From: Desulfatiglandales bacterium
GTDB taxonomy: Bacteria; Desulfobacterota; DSM-4660; Desulfatiglandales; Desulfatiglandaceae
DNA: 64,000 nucleotides
Assembly (NCBI GenBank): GCA_963662465.1
Contig: OY759599.1
Location: forward strand, 3,744,001-3,808,000
Direction of reading: 5' to 3'
This document shows, one piece after another, positions 1 through 10,603 of this stretch. The position numbers were made by a program, and so were the translations under genes. The number at the start of each line of letters is the position of its first letter. The stretch's first letter is position 1. The notes beneath the pieces were generated by a model. That model was not told the origin of the DNA, ran no database searches, and saw nothing but the letters and a program-made list of their open reading frames with translations.

Positions 1-1760
1 AGCTTAGTAGATGTAGTCACCGTATCGCCGTCCTCAAGATTGATATAGTTCGCCGTGTCAGCCGGGGTGAGATTTGGTCTGATAAAATGGCTCGGGTTTC
101 CTTCAGCTATGGTCCGCTGACCATATGCGCAAGGATTATTCCAATTATACTCTGATACCAGTATACTGCCATCAGCGTTGACCTTTTCCACATAGGCCAC
201 ATGACCATAACAGACTGTCTTGTCATTTTCGGTATAACATGCAACGTTGTTCCATTGTGCGACGTCGCCTGCTTGAGGCTTGCTGGTGAGTTCAAACCCA
301 TTTTTTACGTTATCGTCCCAGTTGCTCCCGTTACCCCAATGCCCGCCATCCATGTAATTTGAAAAATTTCCTTCACCAAGCGCCTTGTTTAGGCGCCATG
401 CGACATAAGATGTACAGTTTTTGATATAGAAATCCCAAGGGTCCGAACCACAGGGCTCCTCAACACAATTAGAACAGGCCTTTTTCCTGTATGGATAATC
501 ATCAATGTAGCCCTGACCTAGTGTGCGAATATAATCGATTGTGCAACCAACCCAGTCACATGTTTTCCAATAGGCGAAATACGCATTACCAATTGCCAAG
601 GTATTTGGTCTTAAATCACTCGCTACAGGGCCTCCTACCAAATCTCCATTTAAATAAACATAGAATTTTCCAGCAAGGTATTTAAGCTTCAATGTGAAAA
701 ATTCAGATGGATTTGTTATTTTCGATATGTAATTACCCAAAAGGTAAAGTCGACCACTGCTAAAATCACACCAAACCTGTAAAACCCTGCCGTCCTCTGG
801 TATCCAGGGATTATTACCTGAAGTATCGGTATTGGGATTATAAAAAACAATCATTCCTTCTCCATTGCAGCCTCCAAGAGAATCGAATCTCATCCTTACT
901 TCCAGAATGAAGTCGCCACTTTCTGGAAATGGGGTTTGTCGGCTAGGAGGACCAGCCCAAACATATGGAAAAGTATCAGAATATCCGGAGCTAAAACTTG
1001 CCAGCCCATTTTTCACGATAACTTGACCATACGGCGATTCTCCGGTATGCCCGTAACAAGTCTCGCTCTCTACATTTACCCAATTCCCAATGGCACTTGA
1101 ATGATTTGGGTAAGCCGCAGTACACCACCGTTTGGAAGCTGTAGCGATGTCCGTATTCCATTTCTTGCTGTCTAAGCTCAAACCGTCAAAAGCATCATAC
1201 CAGTATTGGATATGAGGTTCTTGACGGTAAATAAAACCAAGAAAATCAGGATCGTCCACGGGTCTGGTTTTATAATCGTCCGTTTCGCTTGTGAACTGAT
1301 ATGGGTATGCTGCGCTACAATTCATTTCAGTTGAATAAACCGTGTTTTCTTCAATCCGAAAGACATACCCAACATGTCCTGAACCCTCAGAAGAAACGAA
1401 AATACAACCTTCACGTGCTCCATCCTCTGGAGTTCCCGTGGTAAAGCCTGCTTGTTTTGCAGCCGCCAGCCATCCCGTGCCAGCATTTCCCCAACTTGCA
1501 GCCTGGTAGCCCCAGCGATCAGACATCATTTTCCAAGCCCACCATGTGCAGTTGCCATCCTCGTGTTCACCATTAGGGCAACAATCATACACATTTCCGG
1601 TGCTGGTGAATCCATCACATTTATCGCTTCCAGCTGCCATAACGTTTGTGCAAAAAGATGTTGAAGAGAAAAGGAGAAAAATGATGGACATCAAGATCCA
1701 CTCTAAGCGATTCTTGTAACTCTTGCTTATCAAGAATGATCTCATGAGTTTTCTGCACAT
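1..1760 (-). CDS. Secreted protein with two CHAP (cysteine/histidine amidohydrolase-peptidase) domains; 3' end runs off the window
   Basis: Not in the ORF track because there is no stop in the window; translated by hand. ATG at 1760 (alternative 1745) after a G-rich RBS, with a signal-peptide-like N-terminus. CHAP motif set 1: GNCTWWAW..WGNA..GHVGYV..STEMN. Set 2: DPWDFYIKNCTSYVAWRLN..WGNG..GHVAYVEKV..VSEYN. The central region is beta-rich. Confidence 0.85.
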   Translation of the reverse strand, partial: MCRKLMRSFLISKSYKNRLEWILMSIIFLLFSSTSFCTNVMAAGSDKCDGFTSTGNVYDCCPNGEHEDGNCTWWAWKMMSDRWGYQAASWGNAGTGWLAAAKQAGFTTGTPEDGAREGCIFVSSEGSGHVGYVFRIEENTVYSTEMNCSAAYPYQFTSETDDYKTRPVDDPDFLGFIYRQEPHIQYWYDAFDGLSLDSKKWNTDIATASKRWCTAAYPNHSSAIGNWVNVESETCYGHTGESPYGQVIVKNGLASFSSGYSDTFPYVWAGPPSRQTPFPESGDFILEVRMRFDSLGGCNGEGMIVFYNPNTDTSGNNPWIPEDGRVLQVWCDFSSGRLYLLGNYISKITNPSEFFTLKLKYLAGKFYVYLNGDLVGGPVASDLRPNTLAIGNAYFAYWKTCDWVGCTIDYIRTLGQGYIDDYPYRKKACSNCVEEPCGSDPWDFYIKNCTSYVAWRLNKALGEGNFSNYMDGGHWGNGSNWDDNVKNGFELTSKPQAGDVAQWNNVACYTENDKTVCYGHVAYVEKVNADGSILVSEYNWNNPCAYGQRTIAEGNPSHFIRPNLTPADTANYINLEDGDTVTTSTK

Positions 1761-1848
1761 TGTTGCCCCCCGCTTGGTTTTGTTCTGCCCGATGGGTCAG
1801 AGAATGCTCAGGTCAAAAAAGGCCAGCTAAACTACATGAACCCATGCA

Positions 1849-1980
1849 CGCGAACGTTTTAGTTAACAGGCGAACGGGCAAGAAAGAAATATGCGACCAA
1901 TCCACCCGGAAGCGTGATACGGAAAAATCAATTTCAATTTGCTCCAATGACCAGTTTGCCTGTTCAACGGCTGGTTGGAC
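1849..1980 (-). other. Integron attC recombination site (132 bp)
   Basis: Minus strand: R'' GTCCAAC, 5-nt spacer, L'' GTTGAACAGGCAAAC ... L' GTTCGCCTGTTAAC (pairs with L'' leaving one extrahelical base), 6-nt spacer, R' GTTCGCG. The middle is an imperfect palindrome. The next gene starts about 90 nt after the GTT. Confidence 0.8.
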
Positions 1981-3485
1981 AGACCCGCGGGTCACACGCA
2001 CATAGGTTAATGGGAGCAGGATCGCCGCTATGGAGATTAAACGATCTTTGCAGCTACCGCATGACTTCTTTTTGACCCATCATTCCGGCCTAAGCCAGTT
2101 AAAAATGATAAAATTTCTTTTTTTGATCGCATGGTCCCGCTAAAAATGCCAAAATATCGTGTTATTAGGCAGTTTACCAAACACCTCGACATCAAAAACC
2201 TTTCACTCGACTAAAGACCTTTCGACTGCGCATGCTTAATCTATGCTGCTTGGGCGTGTATCATGTCCTGGACTTTATTGAACCTCGGAAGCTCTCTTAA
2301 CTTTTTGACCGGCGTCAATATTTCCAGAGTTATGAGGCGTTTCCCGCAAACAGGGCAACAATCCGGTCGCTCGTCGCTTCGCTGTTGCCAGAGACTCTGC
2401 CAATCCAGGAATCCCAGACTTTCAAGAGGCGGTTGACCCAGTATTTCCCGGCAGAGTGCCAGTTCTTCTTTTGAGCTGTGATGATAGAGTTCGTATGAAC
2501 GCACCATCACGGTATTTGCTAGGGGGACGTGTTGCAGATAGCGGCTGATAAAGGTTTGAATCGGCAGGGAGATGAGTTTTACCTTCTCACGACCGTAATT
2601 GAAGGTCACGTTCCCGTTTTCAATGCTGTAGATGCGTTTGTTTGAAATTGCTCCGCCTCTCAAGTAACGCGCCAGGTAAATCAACACGCCTTCACCGTAT
2701 GAATAGGTCTCTTTGAGCTTGACGTTCCATTTTTTGCGGCGGCCCAGTTTATTGAAGAGGTTCCGGGCCTGCTGAGGCCCCATACCCTCGGGCAGAACCA
2801 GTTCGTTCCGATCCAGGGCTTTTCTCAAATAGTAGAGGTACTTGCCTCGAAATACCGCCCGGACGATGCCAAAGGGCAAAAGGAATTTTTTTGATGAAGC
2901 GATCCACTCGCCGGCGATCAGCCCACCGGCCGTTACCAGACAATGCAGATGCGGATGAAAGTCCAGTTTTCGGCTCCAGGTATGCAGTGAGGCGATGATG
3001 CCGACTTTGCCCCCCAAATGCTTCGGATCTCCAAGGAGTTCGGAAAGGGTTTCAGTGGCGCTTTTGAACAGCAGATTGCCCATAAGCTTGCGGTTCAACC
3101 GCCATAAGTCGTGCAATTCATCGGAGATGGTGAAAATAACATGGAAATGTTCGGTGTTTAAGATGCGAGCCTTTTGTTTTGCCAGCCAACGTTCCACCTG
3201 GGTAAAAGCGCAGAGGGGGCACATGCGATGTTTACACGAGTTGTACCAGTGCCTTTTGAAGTGACCGTCCGGGCACGCCTGCACGTGACCCCCCAGAGCA
3301 GATGTGCGGCAACTCATCAGACGGTGTGCCGCTTCACGAATATGTTCCGGAAGAAGATGGGTCTGATCATAGAGGGCATAGCCTATAAGAAAGATGCTCT
3401 GAATCGTCGCTTCCACTGAAACCTCCTTTATTTACTGGGAGTTACGACGTTAGTTCCCCCGCTGTCCAGCGGGTCTGTCCAACCA
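1972..3485 (-). mobile_element. IS91-family element / transposase cassette with 17-bp perfect inverted repeats
   Basis: TGGTTGGACAGACCCGC at 1972-1988 and its reverse complement GCGGGTCTGTCCAACCA at 3469-3485 enclose a single transposase gene. Confidence 0.75.
2241..3416 (-). CDS. IS91-family (Y2 HUH) transposase
   Basis: N-terminal Zn-binding region (CRT..GGH..C..H..YNSCKHRMCPLC), HUH motif HPHLH, YLARY tyrosine pair. GTG start with AAGGAGG RBS. Confidence 0.92.
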   Translation of the reverse strand: MEATIQSIFLIGYALYDQTHLLPEHIREAAHRLMSCRTSALGGHVQACPDGHFKRHWYNSCKHRMCPLCAFTQVERWLAKQKARILNTEHFHVIFTISDELHDLWRLNRKLMGNLLFKSATETLSELLGDPKHLGGKVGIIASLHTWSRKLDFHPHLHCLVTAGGLIAGEWIASSKKFLLPFGIVRAVFRGKYLYYLRKALDRNELVLPEGMGPQQARNLFNKLGRRKKWNVKLKETYSYGEGVLIYLARYLRGGAISNKRIYSIENGNVTFNYGREKVKLISLPIQTFISRYLQHVPLANTVMVRSYELYHHSSKEELALCREILGQPPLESLGFLDWQSLWQQRSDERPDCCPVCGKRLITLEILTPVKKLRELPRFNKVQDMIHAQAA

Positions 3486-3567
3486 TTGATTATCAAGTTA
3501 TTTTGCCCTGATAAACCTTTAGGTCGTCAATATAAGGGCATTAACGCCCTGATATTTTGATATCAAG
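3477..3567 (-). other. attI-like site (putative)
   Basis: On the minus strand, core GTTGGAC (GTTRRRY) is preceded by a non-palindromic region with direct repeats (TATCAGGGC x2, CTTGATA x2). No attC-type hairpin is present. No intI gene is adjacent. Confidence 0.4.
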
Positions 3568-4043
3568 GCAACACCCTCGATATGTTTATTTTCGGCACCC
3601 AATGCTTCACTATCGACATGTTTATGAGAATTCCTGTAACAAGGAAAAATGTCAAAAAAATACGTTGGTTTTTTGAGTCCAGTCGGTGCGACATTTTTTG
3701 GGGGACCCGCTAAATGTATAATGGCTGAAACGCTCTATTCTTTCATCATAAGCCACGTATCTGAATGACCCGTACCGGTGTTGACCAAAGGCAGTATTCC
3801 CTGAGATAGAATCCAAATTCTCAACTATTTTGAGCCATCGAGACCTGGTAAGCCTCACATTCTTCGGCGAGAATATTGCCTCGGATTTTAGAGAAGACCA
3901 GCCTTACCTTGACTCAATTTTTATACCAAAACCCAAAATATCGTAAAGCCCAAAAAAACTGTGATATCATCAAATCAGCGTGCTTGACCGAACTTTGAAA
4001 CTGATTGCATCTCTCAGGGTCGGTCGCTCTGGGTATATATTGA

Positions 4044-4527
4044 GTTATGTTGTGTGTTGGCCTAACCTATCGAAATAATAAGGGAGTTCGGATCTGGCTT
4101 GAGAAATGATGATTTGGTAAAGATTCCGATAGTTTACCTCCAATTTCCAGAAACGGTTTGAAGGAACTCGCAACATAATAATAATCCTTTAAACATACTT
4201 CTGTGTTCTGATCCAGGGGTTAAACTGCTCCGGGGAGGGTTACTGGATCAAGCGAGCGGGCCTACATCTTTCATAAAGTCTCATATCGCAAACCTCCTAT
4301 AAGGAAGGTAATTCGACGTGGGGTAGGACATAACAGACAGCTTGCAACTTCTAAAATCAATCATAATAATAATATGAGAAAAACCATAAAATCAAGCTTG
4401 GTGTAATATATACCATGCTTGTAAGGCAAAGTCACGCTCAGAATGATAAGAATTATATAGATATTTCAATTCTAAATATGAATTAAATGAATTAAATACA
4501 CACAACATAACCAAACTCGCAACATAA
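4044..4527. repeat. Degenerate element with CAACATAA-box repeats (possible RIT-like tyrosine recombinase element remnant)
   Basis: 14-bp inverted repeat GTTATGTTGTGTGT (4044-4057 / 4498-4511) and 14-bp direct repeat AACTCGCAACATAA (4165-4178, 4514-4527). An internal AGGAGG RBS leads only to a 14-codon ORF. Confidence 0.45.
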
Positions 4528-4743
4528 ATTGAGAGTATATGCAAAAAAGGGCACCCTCAAAAACTTGTGATATTCCTTTCATACCATCAGAACTAAAAAT
4601 TCACACTATCGCCCCTGAGCTTTCCACATCTTGTACCCAATTATGTATTATTAAATTCTACGCAATTTATCACAGCACAAATTTCGATGCAAGCCAAAGT
4701 GACAATTCCGAAAGGAGATTCAATGCCCCAGATATGGAACGTG

Positions 4744-6664
4744 CACGGTAAATTTGTTCTAACAGGTATCACGCTTGGGGCACTGAATTTTTGGTCATCT
4801 TGAGATAGTCGAAGACACCCCTTACGTTCTGCGTGAGCTGGCGCATTTTCTGGGCTACACTGCGAACACCTTTCGCCTTAATGACGCCCACCGCGAATCT
4901 ACGCAGCCTGGTCATGTTTTCAGGACCATTGCCGGTTCTTATTCGGCTTCGATCTTCGTCGTAGTTCCAGTCGATGATGTAATGGCACTCGTTTTCAATG
5001 CTCCAGTGACCGCGATTGATAGAAAGTACACGTTCGGGATTCGCCTGATCAGGTGATTGACTCGTTATGCCGTAAGCAACCTCAACTGTGCATTTACCGG
5101 TTTTCTTGTTTGTAACTTCTCTCTGGATCATAAAAGCCTGGCCGACATACGGGAAATCCAGGTATAGGTTAAGTTCGGTAGTCGTCCATATTTTGCGCAC
5201 TTCGATGCGACCATGATCGGGAGCATCGTGTTGTATGAAATCAGGATCGTTGCAGCCCTCAAAATACAGGGAAATGTCTTGAAGTAATGTGGGCTGGTTG
5301 TTTTTGGCGATGAAATGGTAATGGGCGTTGCGTTGCTCGACCAAATATTTAGCAAAAGTCCTTTGGGTTAGCAGTGCGTCAGCTGAAATGACTTTGCCTT
5401 CGATATCGATCGCGTCCAGTAAAGGGGCAGCCGTTTTGATTTCATTGGTTCGCTTGAGTTCGTCTTTGCCTTCTACAGGGAGAGAACCGACTTTTTTTGG
5501 GTGTAACAGGTCTTAGTTTGATGGCCGACAGCACTCATGATGTGAGTCTGATAACCTTGTTCATCGATGGCATTACACATGGTTTTTCCATCGATGGCCA
5601 AGCTTTCGTCCTGTTCACCGTAAAGCAGATTCCAACGCTGGAGAGCTTTGTCGAGTTCTGTGGGGTCAACGCGAACCAGAACATCACGGATAGTAGACTG
5701 ACTGGGAGCTACATAGCGCTTATTTTCATATCGGCAACGGAAACGCTCAAGGGCTTTTTGTCCAAGACCATTTACCCAATCGGATATCGCCAGATAACCG
5801 CGCATTCCGCACAGTGTTGCGGCGGTGGCAATGGCCAGAACAGTGGAGAGCCTGTGACGTCGTCCCTGGGATCGACGCGGGTCGGGAATTTGAGCAAAAA
5901 AGTCGGGTAGAGATTTCATATGTTCCGCACTGAGCATGATTTTGTAACCTCCTGTAAGATATGGTTTTTTGAGAACAGGTCGGGATAACAGTGCTTGAAC
6001 ATTGGAAACCAATGGTTTAAGAAAAACCATTTTCGGTGAATCCGCTTTATCGCTGTAGCCTTGGCGAGTTCGATGAAAACCCTTTGTTTTACCAACATAT
6101 ATCCAATTGGACGCTCGATATACGGTTCCGTGGAATTGCTTTGGGTCCACAAAGGTTTCCAGGAGTACAACCGGATGCCCGAAACGCTCCTGCCAATCAG
6201 CCTGCATTCGCTTCCGGCATAATGAAAGGATACGGGATGCGAGATTCGGAATATGCCATTCGGGCAAAATTAGAAAACGACTGTTATTGGTTACCAGTTT
6301 CAGTCGATCGTATTGATGGCGAAAATTCCATCCGATCCAGCTGTCCCTTGGTGTACATTTCAAAGCGGGAGCAGAAAAACTGACAAGCGCAATCCACTCA
6401 CTATTTAGTCTAGCTGTATACCAGAGGGTTTCGCTGATCTTGGGAAGAGCGCCCAAATAATGATGCGACTGCATCAGATGCTGAAAGCGTTGTTCTTCAA
6501 GCGGGCGGACTATTTGAATGCGGACTTGCTTAACGTTCAAGAATTTAAACCCCGAATTGGTTTGGTGCCTGTCACAGTATATACACCATCCGAGGGTTTC
6601 TGTTCATAATGTAGCGCAACTTTTATATTTTATTTGGATAATTCGGAAGAATAAATTCACCCTG
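4744..6664 (-). mobile_element. ISAs1-family insertion sequence, complete
   Basis: TIRs CACGGTAAATTTGTTCT / CAGGGTGAATTTATTCT (14/17 match). Perfect 10-bp target duplication ATGGAACGTG at 4734-4743 and 6665-6674. Confidence 0.93.
4769..6540 (-). CDS. ISAs1 transposase with N-terminal DUF4338-like domain; two frames joined by a -1 frameshift at A7G (5491-5498)
   Basis: ORF 5473-6540 has HHYLG..NNSRFLILP..LLETFVD..GTVYRASNW, then DPRRSQGRRH and AIDGKT. The -1 frame continues TNEI..ISADALLTQ..HGRIE..RGHWSIEN..EDRSRIR. Confidence 0.88.
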
Positions 6665-6676
6665 ATGGAACGTGGC

Positions 6677-6711
6677 TTGACATGGTATTAAATAAATACT
6701 ACTTTAGTATT
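6677..6711 (+). promoter_or_regulatory. sigma70 promoter with overlapping operator palindrome for the TA operon
   Basis: TTGACA-N17-TACTTT. Perfect inverted repeat AATACTA-CTT-TAGTATT (6695-6711) covers the -10. Confidence 0.7.
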
Positions 6712-6742
6712 CCATATGGAGTATTGGAAGGGAGGATTTGTT

Positions 6743-6973
6743 ATGAAAGTGAAAACATCCATCACCCTTTCGGAAGAAATTCTGAAGGAAGTCGATCGCC
6801 TGTCCTACGGATACGGAAACCGGTCAGCCCTTATTGAAAAGGCGATTCGAGAATTCCTGGCCGCAGGGGAAAAGCGGAGGCGTGATCGTAAAGACATTGA
6901 AATTCTTAATCAACGGGCGGATGCTTTGAACAAAGAAGCGGATGAAGTTCTTCGCTATCAGGTAGATTTATGA
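6743..6973 (+). CDS. Ribbon-helix-helix antitoxin
   Basis: [42 protein letters not shown] before ATG 6743. Overlaps the toxin start. Confidence 0.85.
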
Positions 6974-7521
6974 AGCGCGGGGAACTCTACCGGGTGTACA
7001 AAGCATCTTCTCATGATCCGAAGGCTTACAGGGTGTTTGTGATTGTGAGCCGCCAGGTTCTGCTTGACTCCCGTTTTTCAACCGCCGTTTGTGCGCCGGT
7101 TTATTCCACCCATGACGGCCTTTCAACCCAGGTACCCGTTGGGGTTGACGATGGTTTGAAACATGACAGCAGTATCCATTGTGATGAGTTGATCAGTATC
7201 CCCAAATCGGCTCTAACTCATTTCATCGGCACACTCAGCCCACGCAAAATTGAGGTTCTGAACCAGGCCTTACGGGTTGCTCTGGGGTTGGATTGTTTTG
7301 ACGAGATCTCTATCAAAAAATCCATTGACAGACAACCGTATTCATGCAGAAAAATGGTGCCTATGTCAATTTACATGTATTTCCTCGGAGAAACGCGCTA
7401 TGTATACAAGACTATTGTGGTTCCCCGCCAACCCCAGGCGAAGTTTTTTCCTATGGGGACCCAGGCAAACCGGAAAAACCACCCTGTTGAAGTCTGTTTA
7501 TCCGAAAGGGCACCGCATTGA
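6970..7521 (+). CDS. mazF: PemK/MazF-family toxin (C-terminal read-through extension)
   Basis: [50 protein letters not shown]; the family domain ends near residue 107. Confidence 0.85.
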
Positions 7522-7965
7522 CTTGCTGAAAACCGATGAGTTGATGCGGTATTTGCAGCGTCCCTCATTGTTACGCGAAATCGCGGCTGCGCTACCCAAA
7601 GGAAAAACGATTGTCATTGACGAAATTCATTATCTGATTCAGGCGCAAGGAACCGTCTTCGCACTCTGCGGTTCTCCCAGATGCACTACGATATTTCCTA
7701 CTGGCGCTTGTCAAGTGGTATTGAGGTCGATTTTATCCTGGGGCCTGGTACCGTAGCCGTGGAGGTTAAAGCAAAAGTACGCGTTACCGAGAATGATTTG
7801 GGAGGTCTCCGCCACTTTCGCCGGGAATACCCAAAGGTTTTTCACCTGATTGTGGTTTGTCTGAAAACCCGGCACCGCGGGACTGAAGATGGTATCCATA
7901 TTCTGCCCTACCGGAAATTCATTCAGTCCTTTTGGGAAGGCACATGGGATGGAATACTGCCATAG
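7400..7965 (+). pseudogene. Internally deleted, frameshifted AAA+/DUF4143 ATPase
   Basis: Walker A GPRQTGKT and Walker B IVIDEI in one frame. C-terminal YWR..GIEVDFI..AVEVKA in another frame. Most of the middle is missing. Confidence 0.8.
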
Positions 7966-9155
7966 TCCATTCCGCTCCTGGGCATCAAAAAGACCAAAAC
8001 AAACGCCACAAACGCCAACAGGCCGCAAATGCCGAACAACACCTCAAGCCCCCAGTGCGCCACAATCACGCCGCCCACGAAGGGGCCCGCAAAAAAACCG
8101 GCCTGCTGCATCTCCATCAGATAATTGGTGTTGAGACCGCGCAATGCCGGGGGGCTGTTCTGAAACATCAAGGCGTTGCACAGGGGGGAGGTCAGGCCCC
8201 AGCCCGCGCCCAAAGCCATGGCCAATAAAAAAAAAGGGATTTGCCCGTGTACCAGGCCCAATAAAAGAAGCGAGACGGCGAGCAGCCCCAGGGCCGCGGC
8301 AAATAGATGACGCGCCCCCACTTTGTCGGCCCAGGGCAAGGCCAAAAGCCGGGTGCCGACCATGCTCACCGTTACAACGGTAAAGAAGAGTCCCGCATGG
8401 GCCAGGCTTCTGCTTTCGGCGAAGGTTTTAATAAAGTAGAAAACCGGCGCATAGCCCATGTAAATCAGAAAATAGATCATCAGCAGAATCGCCACGGGTC
8501 TTTGGGTTAAATTCCGTCGCAGACCTTGCGCACTCAGTCTTTCAAAAGGACCTTCCTCCTGATTTGCGCCCCGGGTCGGCGGTTTGGCCACCAGTAACAA
8601 GGGAAAAACAGCCAGCATGCAAAGGGCAACCAGCTTGAGCACGCCTGGGAATCCGCCCATTTCGGCGGATAGAAACCCCATCAGTGGGGGGAGCACGGCA
8701 TAGGGCAGGAGGTTTATGTTCATTACGAAACCGAAAGCGCTGCTGCTTTTTTCTTTGGGGATATAGGCCATCAAAAGAGCGGTCAGGGCCGTGACCAAAA
8801 AAACATGCCCCAGGCCATGGACCACACGGACCGCCAGCAGACCTGAAAAATTCTGAAAATAGCCATAGGCGAGAAGGGCCGCCATCATCAGTGCCGCACC
8901 CAGCGCCATGTAGGGCCTAGCATTATCCGGATGGAACATCGGCGCGATAAACGGGCGCACCAAAAGGGACGTAAAAGAAAAAACGCCGATAATCAAGCCA
9001 AACCATCGTGGGTCAAGATCCAGGGTTCCCAGATAGGTGTAAAACTGGAAGAAAACGGCCATGTTGCAAAAGGCCAAAAAGAGAATGCCATTTAAGGCAA
9101 AGAACGCCTTGTTCATGAAACCGGGACGGGTTGGATTCTGTTTTTCTGTTTTCAT
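7923..9155 (-). CDS. MFS transporter
   Basis: 410 aa with about 12 hydrophobic segments; VRVVHGLG and ADKVGAR motifs. Confidence 0.9.
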   Translation of the reverse strand: MKTEKQNPTRPGFMNKAFFALNGILFLAFCNMAVFFQFYTYLGTLDLDPRWFGLIIGVFSFTSLLVRPFIAPMFHPDNARPYMALGAALMMAALLAYGYFQNFSGLLAVRVVHGLGHVFLVTALTALLMAYIPKEKSSSAFGFVMNINLLPYAVLPPLMGFLSAEMGGFPGVLKLVALCMLAVFPLLLVAKPPTRGANQEEGPFERLSAQGLRRNLTQRPVAILLMIYFLIYMGYAPVFYFIKTFAESRSLAHAGLFFTVVTVSMVGTRLLALPWADKVGARHLFAAALGLLAVSLLLLGLVHGQIPFFLLAMALGAGWGLTSPLCNALMFQNSPPALRGLNTNYLMEMQQAGFFAGPFVGGVIVAHWGLEVLFGICGLLAFVAFVLVFLMPRSGMDYGSIPSHVPSQKD

Positions 9156-9168
9156 GTCGGCGAAAAAA

Positions 9169-9360
9169 TTTGGGCAGGTTTATGACGATCCGTTTTCAAC
9201 AAGATACGGCTTTCTTCGGTTCCATGTCAAACAGGCCTTCCACCGTTGTTTGGACAGCGGGATTCTACATAATGGCCTTGCAGGGGTCAAATGTAAAAAA
9301 TGCATTTACGAATTATTACGCACATTTTCATGCGAACATCGCTTCGGGGTTTCCGTCTAA
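9169..9360 (+). pseudogene. Remnant of an IS91-type transposase zinc-binding domain
   Basis: FGQVYDD.F..RYGFLR..V..AFHRCLDSGILHNGLAGVKCKKC..ELLRTFSCEHR is a decayed match to the YLDCG..GFARV.C..C....AFSCK.R pattern. Confidence 0.65.
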
Positions 9361-9433
9361 ACCTCAATTTAAAGCTTGATTTTAAGTAAATCCGAAGTTA
9401 AGATTTGCAATATCATAAATACAGGAAGAGGAT

Positions 9434-10603
9434 ATGTGGGTAAAACGCCAGCTAAAAAATAGAATTCTTCAAATGACGGCATCCAGGCCCGCCCTGCTGT
9501 TAACCGGGGCCAGACAGACCGGGAAGACATCTTTGCTTCAACGGCTGTTTCCTGACGTGGAATACATTACCTTTGATTATTTGCGGCAGGTGGCGGCCGC
9601 TAAGGAATCTCCGGAACATTTTCTCAGCCAATTTGAGAAGCAGGTGATTCTCGACGAAATTCAATATGTACCCGAATTGTTCCGGGAGCTGAAAATCGTT
9701 ATCGATAAAGAGCGGCGGAATTACGGCAAATGGATCATGACCGGCAGCCAACAGTTCGGACTCATGGAAAATATCAGTGAAAGCCTGGCCGGAAGAATCA
9801 CTATCTGCCACCTTGAAACGCTCAGTGCCGCTGAACTGAGAAATGAAAAAATTGACCCTGTCCATGATTTTTTGTGGAAAGGGGGCTACCCGGAACTCTG
9901 GTCAAATCCATCCCTTGAAATATCGGATTTTTTTGAAAGCTATATTCGAACCTATGTTGAAAGGGATCTGAAAACAATTATCGATGTAAAAAACTTGAGC
10001 GATTTCAGACGGTTTATTAGAATGATCGCTGCCAGGTGCGGTCAGCTTTTAAATTACAGGAGCCTGTCTTTGGATGTGGGGGTATCGGATGTCACCATCA
10101 GAAAATGGACCCACGCGCTGGAAATCAGCGGATTGATATATCTGTTGAATCCATACTACGCAAATATCGGAAAACGGCTCATAAAGTCTCCCAAAATTTA
10201 TTTTGCCGATCATGGACTGCTGTGTTACCTGCTGGGAATCGAAAACAGCGGGGACTGGCACGCCCACCCTCTGAAAGGGAGTTTATGGGAGAACCTGGTC
10301 ATGACGGAGCTGGTCAAGAATCATCATCTGGTCCCGGGAAACAATCTGTTTTTCTACAGGGATCAAAACGGCGTTGAAATCGATTTTGTTATAGAAAAGA
10401 AAGGGAACTTGTTTTTCATCGAAGCCAAGGCAGGGGAACGCATTGATCCCAAAAAGCTTCATTTTCAAAAGGTCGCGGCACTGTTCGGCAATCAATTTCA
10501 TATCGAAAAAGCACTGGCGCAAAATATCAATGAAACAAGCGTCATGCGGCAAAAAAACTATCGGACGTATAACCCATTGTATTCAACGTTAGATTTTCTG
10601 TGA
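9434..10603 (+). CDS. AAA+ ATP-binding protein with DUF4143 domain
   Basis: GARQTGKT, VILDEIQ, TGSQ, ESLAGR, GGYPE, KSPKIYFAD.GL, YRDQNGVEIDFV motifs. Confidence 0.9.
   Translation: MWVKRQLKNRILQMTASRPALLLTGARQTGKTSLLQRLFPDVEYITFDYLRQVAAAKESPEHFLSQFEKQVILDEIQYVPELFRELKIVIDKERRNYGKWIMTGSQQFGLMENISESLAGRITICHLETLSAAELRNEKIDPVHDFLWKGGYPELWSNPSLEISDFFESYIRTYVERDLKTIIDVKNLSDFRRFIRMIAARCGQLLNYRSLSLDVGVSDVTIRKWTHALEISGLIYLLNPYYANIGKRLIKSPKIYFADHGLLCYLLGIENSGDWHAHPLKGSLWENLVMTELVKNHHLVPGNNLFFYRDQNGVEIDFVIEKKGNLFFIEAKAGERIDPKKLHFQKVAALFGNQFHIEKALAQNINETSVMRQKNYRTYNPLYSTLDFL

Follow-up and report, generated by a model that had tools for sequence, protein, structure and literature searches.

Integron gene cassettes are commonly regarded as passive cargo. 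Their recombination by IntI takes place on the bottom strand of attC, according to the accessible part of one account (PMC2727003), and in the available text of another the only parallel named for it is the CTX case, in which XerCD is borrowed (PMC4792948). The same text poses a chicken-and-egg question, that of the I2 domain versus attC. For IS91, single-stranded and double-stranded circles have been described, of which only the bottom-strand circle inserts, and terIS is given as the tetranucleotide adjoining the subterminal palindrome upstream of tnpA (PMC13181058, in the portion available). ISShvi3 has been reported beside an attC, in a single sentence of the accessible text (PMC9229058). 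One paper names gcISKpn22 after INTEGRALL (PMC6262049) and another presents In722 with and without it (PMC12772345), and the available portions of both contain no mechanism, family or cis sites. A literature search, with most subscription papers and ISfinder notes outside its reach, found no paper on the family described below, its cis sites or its mechanism. This family is real and widespread and has been named before (gcISKpn22, ISShvi3), yet it is without explanation in the literature searched.

The window is a stretch of 64,000 nucleotides from a Desulfatiglandales genome (contig OY759599.1, positions 3,744,001 to 3,808,000). Close to its start, on the minus strand (3482-1855), lies a unit of 1,628 bp that comprises an intact IS91-family HUH/Y2 gene and a canonical attC and stands in an orphan attI. 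The features are listed in the direction of the minus strand; canonical IS91 and IS1294-like ends, taken from plasmid records, served for comparison.

3484..3567, minus strand: orphan attI-like site, with its core G at 3483 and without intI in the window.
3477..3483, minus strand: cassette start GTTGGAC, at which identity between copies begins whatever lies upstream; predicted IntI crossover G|TT.
Within 3477..3483, minus strand: terIS-like tetranucleotide GGAC (GTCC on the bottom strand), by reference to the canonical ends.
3458..3473, minus strand: terIS-like hairpin CCCGCTG-GA-CAGCGGG, 3 nt past GGAC, in an IS91/IS1294-like ter layout.
2241..3416, minus strand: IS91-family HUH/Y2 transposase of 391 aa with a Zn-binding domain (PF14319, PF04986, NF033538).
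2028..2040, minus strand: oriIS-like motif TTAATCTCCATAG, internal to the cassette and 47 nt before R''; consensus TnnAAYYYCCATAG.
1981..1988, minus strand: 3' half of the extended inverted repeat, which together with R'' makes 15 bp complementary to 3483-3469.
1849..1980, minus strand: element attC of 132 bp, recognized from directly readable R'', L'', L' and R' boxes, from its circle-form fold and from compensatory stem changes.
1..1854, minus strand: next cassette, with a gene for a CHAP-domain protein (PF05257) that starts at 1760 and runs off the window.

The attC consists of R'' GTCCAAC (1980-1974), a 5-nt spacer and L'' GTT[G]AACA (1968-1961) with an extra base at position 4 and, on the other arm, of L' TGTTAAC (1868-1862), the 6-nt spacer TAAAAC and R' GTTCGCG (1855-1849), the TTCGCG part of which is that of the next cassette. 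The CHAP cassette has its own attC (R'' AGCGAAC) just beyond the window, which scores 54.9 bits with a covariance model of host attCs; Rfam gave no match within positions 1-10,000 of the window. Both heptamers that an initial annotation had placed at the ends of the unit, GTTGGAC at 3483-3477 and GTCCAAC at 1980-1974 of the minus strand, are indeed present. The perfect 17-bp inverted repeat described there can be read as well (1972-1988 with 3469-3485), but two of its bases belong to the flank and are absent from other copies, so that the repeat of the unit is 15 bp long. This is longer than the runs of 5-6 bases in five host cassette pairings and than the 9-11 nt given for cassette pairing in the accessible part of PMC2727003. 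The left arm of the ter-like hairpin alternatively pairs with the 3' repeat.

The upstream side had been described as attI-like and without an adjacent intI, and both statements hold. The sequence at 3484..3567 resembles the attI of an intact intI at G000:6792517 in the same genome (95.6% over 45 nt, 14 of which are element) and the attI beside a truncated intI at 7979771 (91% over 34 nt), and a tblastn search of the window with IntI detected no remnant of the gene (best E 3.5). Repeats belonging to other mobile DNA, at window positions 3850-4580, may mark the route of intI loss. Further upstream of the orphan attI, positions 4769-6540 (minus strand) hold a split transposase with a DruA-like N-terminal domain, which we take from its Pfam domains to be ISAs1-like. 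A PemK/MazF-like toxin gene, accompanied by a small partner upstream, lies at 6716-7521. A short frame at 9200-9360 appears to resemble the Zn-binding start of an ISCR-type transposase.

The transposase ORF (3416-2241) scores NF033538 at 347 bits (cut-off 125) and has a GGAGG ribosome site upstream, at 3426-3422. H154, H156, Y247 and Y251 are intact and invariant across 53 aligned homologues; dN/dS between variants is 0.05-0.11, and the gene is evidently under purifying selection. A promoter scan found no promoter-like site on the minus strand, the sole site being on the plus strand and below the shuffle mean. A PDB sequence search found no relative of the transposase, and Foldseek gave no match at E <= 0.001, the weak rows being relaxase, parvovirus NS1 and Helitron, with the best HUH match at E 5e-3.

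The search of the genome for intI and other copies, proposed in the initial annotation, revealed 17 copies in 8.16 Mb, at 79-100% amino acid identity. They are preceded by the attI of an intact intI (3 copies), the orphan attI (1), a host attC (4, one assigned by eye) or their own attC in tandem (7), and two have a group II intron at +6. Eight copies stand in tandem with a period of 1,609 bp, i.e., the unit; this stack is known from the assembly alone and could in part be an assembly error. The element is the first cassette at three of the four full-length TIGR02249 genes, whereas the fourth has no evident attI within 675 nt. IntI-like genes with a long N-terminal extension (ORFs of 490 and 474 aa) and no evident adjoining attI are present at G000:4981289 and 6845296.

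The junctions are G|TT in all cases except one G|AT. Among the 16 copies with R'', 15 read through the full attC to GTT (14 copies) or GAT (1), and seven different heptamers follow these 15 ends. In the remaining copy (G000:3355706, L006), a 280-bp cassette that also occurs elsewhere truncates the attC at the GTT of L''; this mini-cassette has recombined there and removed the rest of the site. Near-identical copies have the same attC between different flanks; hence the attC is the element's own rather than its target, and the junctions are of the IntI type. The attCs of variants B, C and D are homologous to that of the element, with compensatory stem changes across the four variants, and two copies have a duplicated downstream block in common. 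These comparisons show that the mobile unit, as delimited from the genome sequence, corresponds to the entire cassette (TTGGAC ... transposase ... attC-G), whose junctions with neighbouring DNA are integron core sites. Its movement is very probably of the IntI type, and the earlier proposal of a selfish, cassette-built element moved by IntI in trans gains support from the G|TT junctions and from the positions at attI and behind attCs.

Behind 41 host-type attCs, the only following sequences that recur are introns and this element. Group II introns in sense orientation lie 6 bases into the cassette start at many attC sites of G000 and also at 3354077 and 3339694; the available text of PMC7923331 holds one case of an intron inside a cassette start at +6. 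Four gene-less mini-cassettes retain the GTTGRAC start, the ori-like motif and the attC, two of them with a clear ter hairpin, and are likely to be non-autonomous derivatives:

G000:2362639, 4723456, 3208415 and 3355706: mini-cassettes of ~205-285 bp, each with the element start, the ori-like motif and a related attC.

Lone related hairpins are found at G000:4156203 and 296560.

Beyond this genome, 3,058 homologues were retrieved at E <= 0.001, the nearest named relatives of the gene belonging to assemblies of Desulfatiglandales and other deltaproteobacteria; within the phylum, 29 of 401 genomes have a match at E <= 1e-60, and three of 41 close relatives carry element DNA. For the locus comparisons, 12 short loci were extended by retrieving more DNA from the same positions and L028, which had no match, was dropped; kin are not independent, and related sequences inflate all counts that follow. 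A strict attC scan (score of at least 9) downstream of the gene was positive at 31 of 77 loci, compared with 2 of 231 shuffles and none of 77 coding stretches. A looser hairpin score was passed by 61 of 68 loci, yet 112 of 340 coding controls passed too, and it was therefore dropped as evidence. With the covariance model, derived from 42 shorter host sites (61-111 nt), the 132-nt site yielded a partial match of 10.4 bits over 1962-1980, and all element attCs at 13 loci were missed; an attC-model score was the check named in the initial annotation, and in this form, narrow as the model is, the site did not pass it. In all other cassette features examined, the element agrees with an integron gene cassette. 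On the 5' side, a partner of the R'' region (at least 12 of 16 bases) is present at 42 of 62 loci (15 of 310 for shuffled queries), and the two ends covary, as in TATGGAC/GTCCATA of L017 and in GAAGAAC/GTTCTTC of the four copies in G229, with GAA or GTA junctions.

The element attC itself can be split: at L033:4402-6620 an inverted, IIC-attC-like group II intron (439-aa RT, YADD) interrupts it at R'', with the remainder of the site following the intron. An element-type attC directly 5' of the element start, i.e., a tandem or circle junction, is seen in other organisms at L078, L068, L069 and L030.

The 79 classifiable 5' ends, among them 8 copies of the source genome (19 further ends were too short), fall into 21 behind a same-orientation attC, 9 behind an attI-like site and 49 behind neither, with no inverted attC; inspection by eye shows that many of the "neither" ends are half-palindromic sites of the tyrosine-recombinase type. 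These contexts bear on the alternative that the element is an attC-homing insertion sequence with its end at GTCCAAC, for which the R'' of host attCs would be the insertion site and the hairpin the target. Conservation is indeed sharp at GTYCAAC in a logo of 48 dereplicated loci, and the attC bodies differ among relatives: in L011, at 87%, the attC is of another family, and within one soil clade two types of body are interleaved, although with weak branch support. Nevertheless, we consider this alternative very unlikely. Upstream of the element stands attI or a complete attC of the same orientation rather than a gene end, and the copies within one genome, in the source genome as well as in G229 (four copies), G338 (two) and G384 (two), have one hairpin in common and diverge only beyond it. 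Moreover, both soil body types have the same right end, TCCTAATGY, and body swaps can come from top-strand recombination at R'' (PMC2727003, available part). For the source genome, in which the copies share the attC and diverge beyond it, homing is largely refuted. The earlier suggestion of ends that capture host attCs, or border on different ones, finds no support, given that near-identical copies keep one attC and that the spacer before R' is specific to the element.

This spacer specificity is seen in TA[AT] before R', which 53 of 67 element sites carry, compared with 2 of 54 host sites in the neighbourhood (after dereplication, 20 of 29 and 2 of 46); the contrast is weaker in the source genome because 6 of its 23 host attCs also carry TA[AT]. 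The ter hairpin, the ori-like motif and the TAA spacer before R' are kept in relatives down to 30% identity. Across these relatives, cassettes start with GTT-GRAC, 3-4 nt and a hairpin with a variable stem (CCGC, CCGG, ATCGC, ATAAAAT), GRAC being demanded by the search pattern and the element ends having been located independently; some ends (L059, L069) are without a strong G+C hairpin or repeat.

In principle, intact catalytic residues together with ter-like and ori-like motifs could mean that a classical IS91 entered an empty cassette on a single occasion and goes on transposing by itself from ori to ter. This is highly improbable, given that all 16 copies with the motif continue to R'' and none stops at the motif, that R'' follows the motif in 68 of 77 relatives (spacing of 16-50 nt) and that another IS91 family of the same genome, used here as a control, shows classical behaviour, having no attC and constant ends of the CTTG type. 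Also unlike IS91, the motif is followed by no conserved bases or tetranucleotide in the logo of 48 dereplicated loci. A second IS91-type family of ~1.56 kb, in which ori precedes the gene and the target, of the AACTTG type, is longer, was noted at G000:381417 and at least 10 other places.

The conserved ter-like and ori-like sites suggest that the cassette is copied by a rolling-circle mechanism rather than inserted into attC. We propose that the element is a self-amplifying integron cassette, a reading to which we assign a probability of about 55%. The HUH enzyme would no longer insert the element and would serve as a rolling-circle initiator and terminator; its role as amplifier of its own cassette is the one towards which we lean. 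IntI, acting in trans, would insert the folded bottom-strand circle at attI or at other core sites. On the bottom strand of a circle, or at a tandem junction, the order hairpin - 3 nt - GTCC^AAC - spacer would rebuild an IS91-type ter/ori junction, and a nick at this junction followed by one round of copying would yield further circles of the bottom strand, which is the one employed by IS91 and recombined by IntI. The extended repeat would stabilize the attC in the circle and not in the inserted state, so that entry would be favoured over loss. Expression of the promoter-less gene would be highest in the first position at attI, which would fit the tandem stack.

The predicted folds agree with a part of this scheme. 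For the bottom strand in circle form, the lowest-energy fold is a canonical attC with a longer stem (-36.5 kcal/mol), whereas in the inserted state, in the window, the same attC fold lies 6.7 kcal/mol above the minimum. The proposed nick site is base-paired in the folded circle and should be disfavoured by the HUH enzyme. L078, which starts inside its own attC, fits a circle or a tandem. The circle junction was not confirmed in any of 29 pattern matches in viral contigs, and homologous loci contain no terminal repeats.

Another account is that of a plain cassette with a passenger gene, in which IntI does all the moving and copying and the HUH gene is kept for a benefit to the host or for mobilizing other DNA in trans, without amplifying its own cassette. 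In the available text of PMC8024014, copy-and-paste duplicates and first-position insertions arise from IntI alone, which counts against an amplifier; the long repeat by itself could bias the cassette towards insertion; and the contigs of four runs (at most three samples, two studies), which drop rare forms, contain no circle back-joint. What makes this account rather unlikely, in our view, is that the ter-like and ori-like sites keep their position with respect to the R boxes over the whole identity range of 30 to 100% and that the gene-less mini-cassettes keep them, whereas none of the 23 host attCs of the source genome has the ori-like motif or these sites. Furthermore, no ordinary cassette start of this genome occurs more than once.

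A different division of labour would leave IntI the insertion only, with the HUH enzyme copying the element out of a single integrated copy by a bottom-strand nick at the R' boundary and a stop at ter, so that a complete cassette circle would be released without excision by IntI. Such copy-out would account for the conservation of ter, and the conserved spacer with GTT at the right end, e.g., TCCTAATGC-GTT, resembles oriIS termini such as TCCTATGC-TTT in the classical IS91 family of this genome and TCCTATAC-GT in an IS1294-like element. However, the four bases before the presumed nick vary freely, whereas nicks in the IS91 family follow a fixed tetranucleotide (PMC13181058, accessible portion), and we regard copy-out from an integrated copy as quite unlikely.

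The self-amplifying cassette would be one branch of a broader group. Type I elements, with the transposase alone, and type II elements, which add a recombinase, are sister groups in one clade, apart from IS91, the IS1294-like elements and the control family (tree support 0.985-0.988), and gcISKpn22 groups with type I (support 0.96). The repeat, the ter hairpin, the motif and the terminal hairpin are common to both types. The type II recombinase (PF13495 and PF00589) has an N-terminal domain as in IntI and is without the IntI insertion, as are IS91-linked recombinases in the available part of a preprint (10.1101/542381). The L'' bulge occurs in 40 of 49 type I hairpins versus none of 18 of type II, for 67 loci with confident calls (at least 9 of 11 pairs and R'' beginning with GT), a classification that mis-set some loci, e.g., L040, L049, L081 and L161. 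All 20 type II 5' ends belong to the "neither" class and none lies behind an attC, and type II copies within one genome have the hairpin in common and differ in the sequence beyond it.

Three identical type II copies on Rhizobium plasmids (L187-L189) have a G|ATTGAAC start, a GATTCC end and a longer post-hairpin spacer, and represent a variant core. In the soil clade L040-L081 (e.g., L047, L049 and L065), recombinase-free elements with bulge-free hairpins stand at half-palindromic sites (GACATAG-N5-GTTATC) outside arrays and may borrow a type II recombinase.

For the whole clade, we put forward, with the chances about evenly balanced, that the HUH enzyme makes bottom-strand circles and that a tyrosine recombinase inserts their folded end, in place of HUH insertion. 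Under this two-enzyme reading, the recombinase-free branch would be the self-amplifying cassette, which hijacks IntI. If correct, integrons would have a parasite of a new kind, namely a cassette that multiplies itself by supplying IntI with single-stranded circles; one member, gcISKpn22, already resides in a class 1 integron of clinical origin. A role would also emerge for the so far unexplained recombinases carried by IS91-type elements, and there would be a testable route from a double-strand recombinase to action on folded single strands. It is tempting, if doubtful, to see in type II a living model of a pre-integron stage; if so, it would answer the question of the I2 domain and attC that is posed in the available text of PMC4792948.

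Among the known systems, gcISKpn22 (fourth cassette of the class 1 integron In722, NZ_AP018758.1) is built like the element: it has a GTTGAAC start behind the aadA2 attC, a lone HUH/Y2 gene with 38% identity, an ori-like motif, a GTTCAAC R'', a bulged L'' and a TAAGC spacer; it is a single copy on a clinical plasmid, whereas the element forms a multicopy chromosomal family. ISShvi3 can be set beside type II by its description, type II having a recombinase and bulge-free hairpins. IS91, IS801, IS1294 and IS1294b share with the element the HUH/Y2 and Zn domains, the upstream ter layout and the downstream ori-like motif (PMC13181058, in the part available). Unlike the IS91 family, with its dissimilar ends, the element has a terminal inverted repeat of 15 bp and an internal ori motif, runs on through the attC and has G|TT junctions without a fixed tetranucleotide target; it forms a clade separate from the IS91 group and has no orf121.

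The IS1111-attC elements and the group IIC-attC introns are parasites of integron arrays like the element, but, in the accessible text on them, they insert into host attCs by their own enzymes (PMC9229058, PMC7923331), whereas the element brings its own attC. With integron gene cassettes it has in common the R and L boxes, spacers, extra-helical base, G|TT junctions and array position (PMC2727003, available part). It differs from ordinary cassettes in its nuclease cargo, in cis sites tied to the R boxes, in a longer R-box complement and in its high copy number. The single strand of the CTX phage is HUH-made, with a role for its Rep and for tandem prophages. In this phage, one of the elements that make use of XerCD, a single strand folds into att and is inserted by a borrowed tyrosine recombinase (PMC4792948, accessible part), as proposed for the element, in which the recombinase would be IntI and the site attC, and which has no virion genes.
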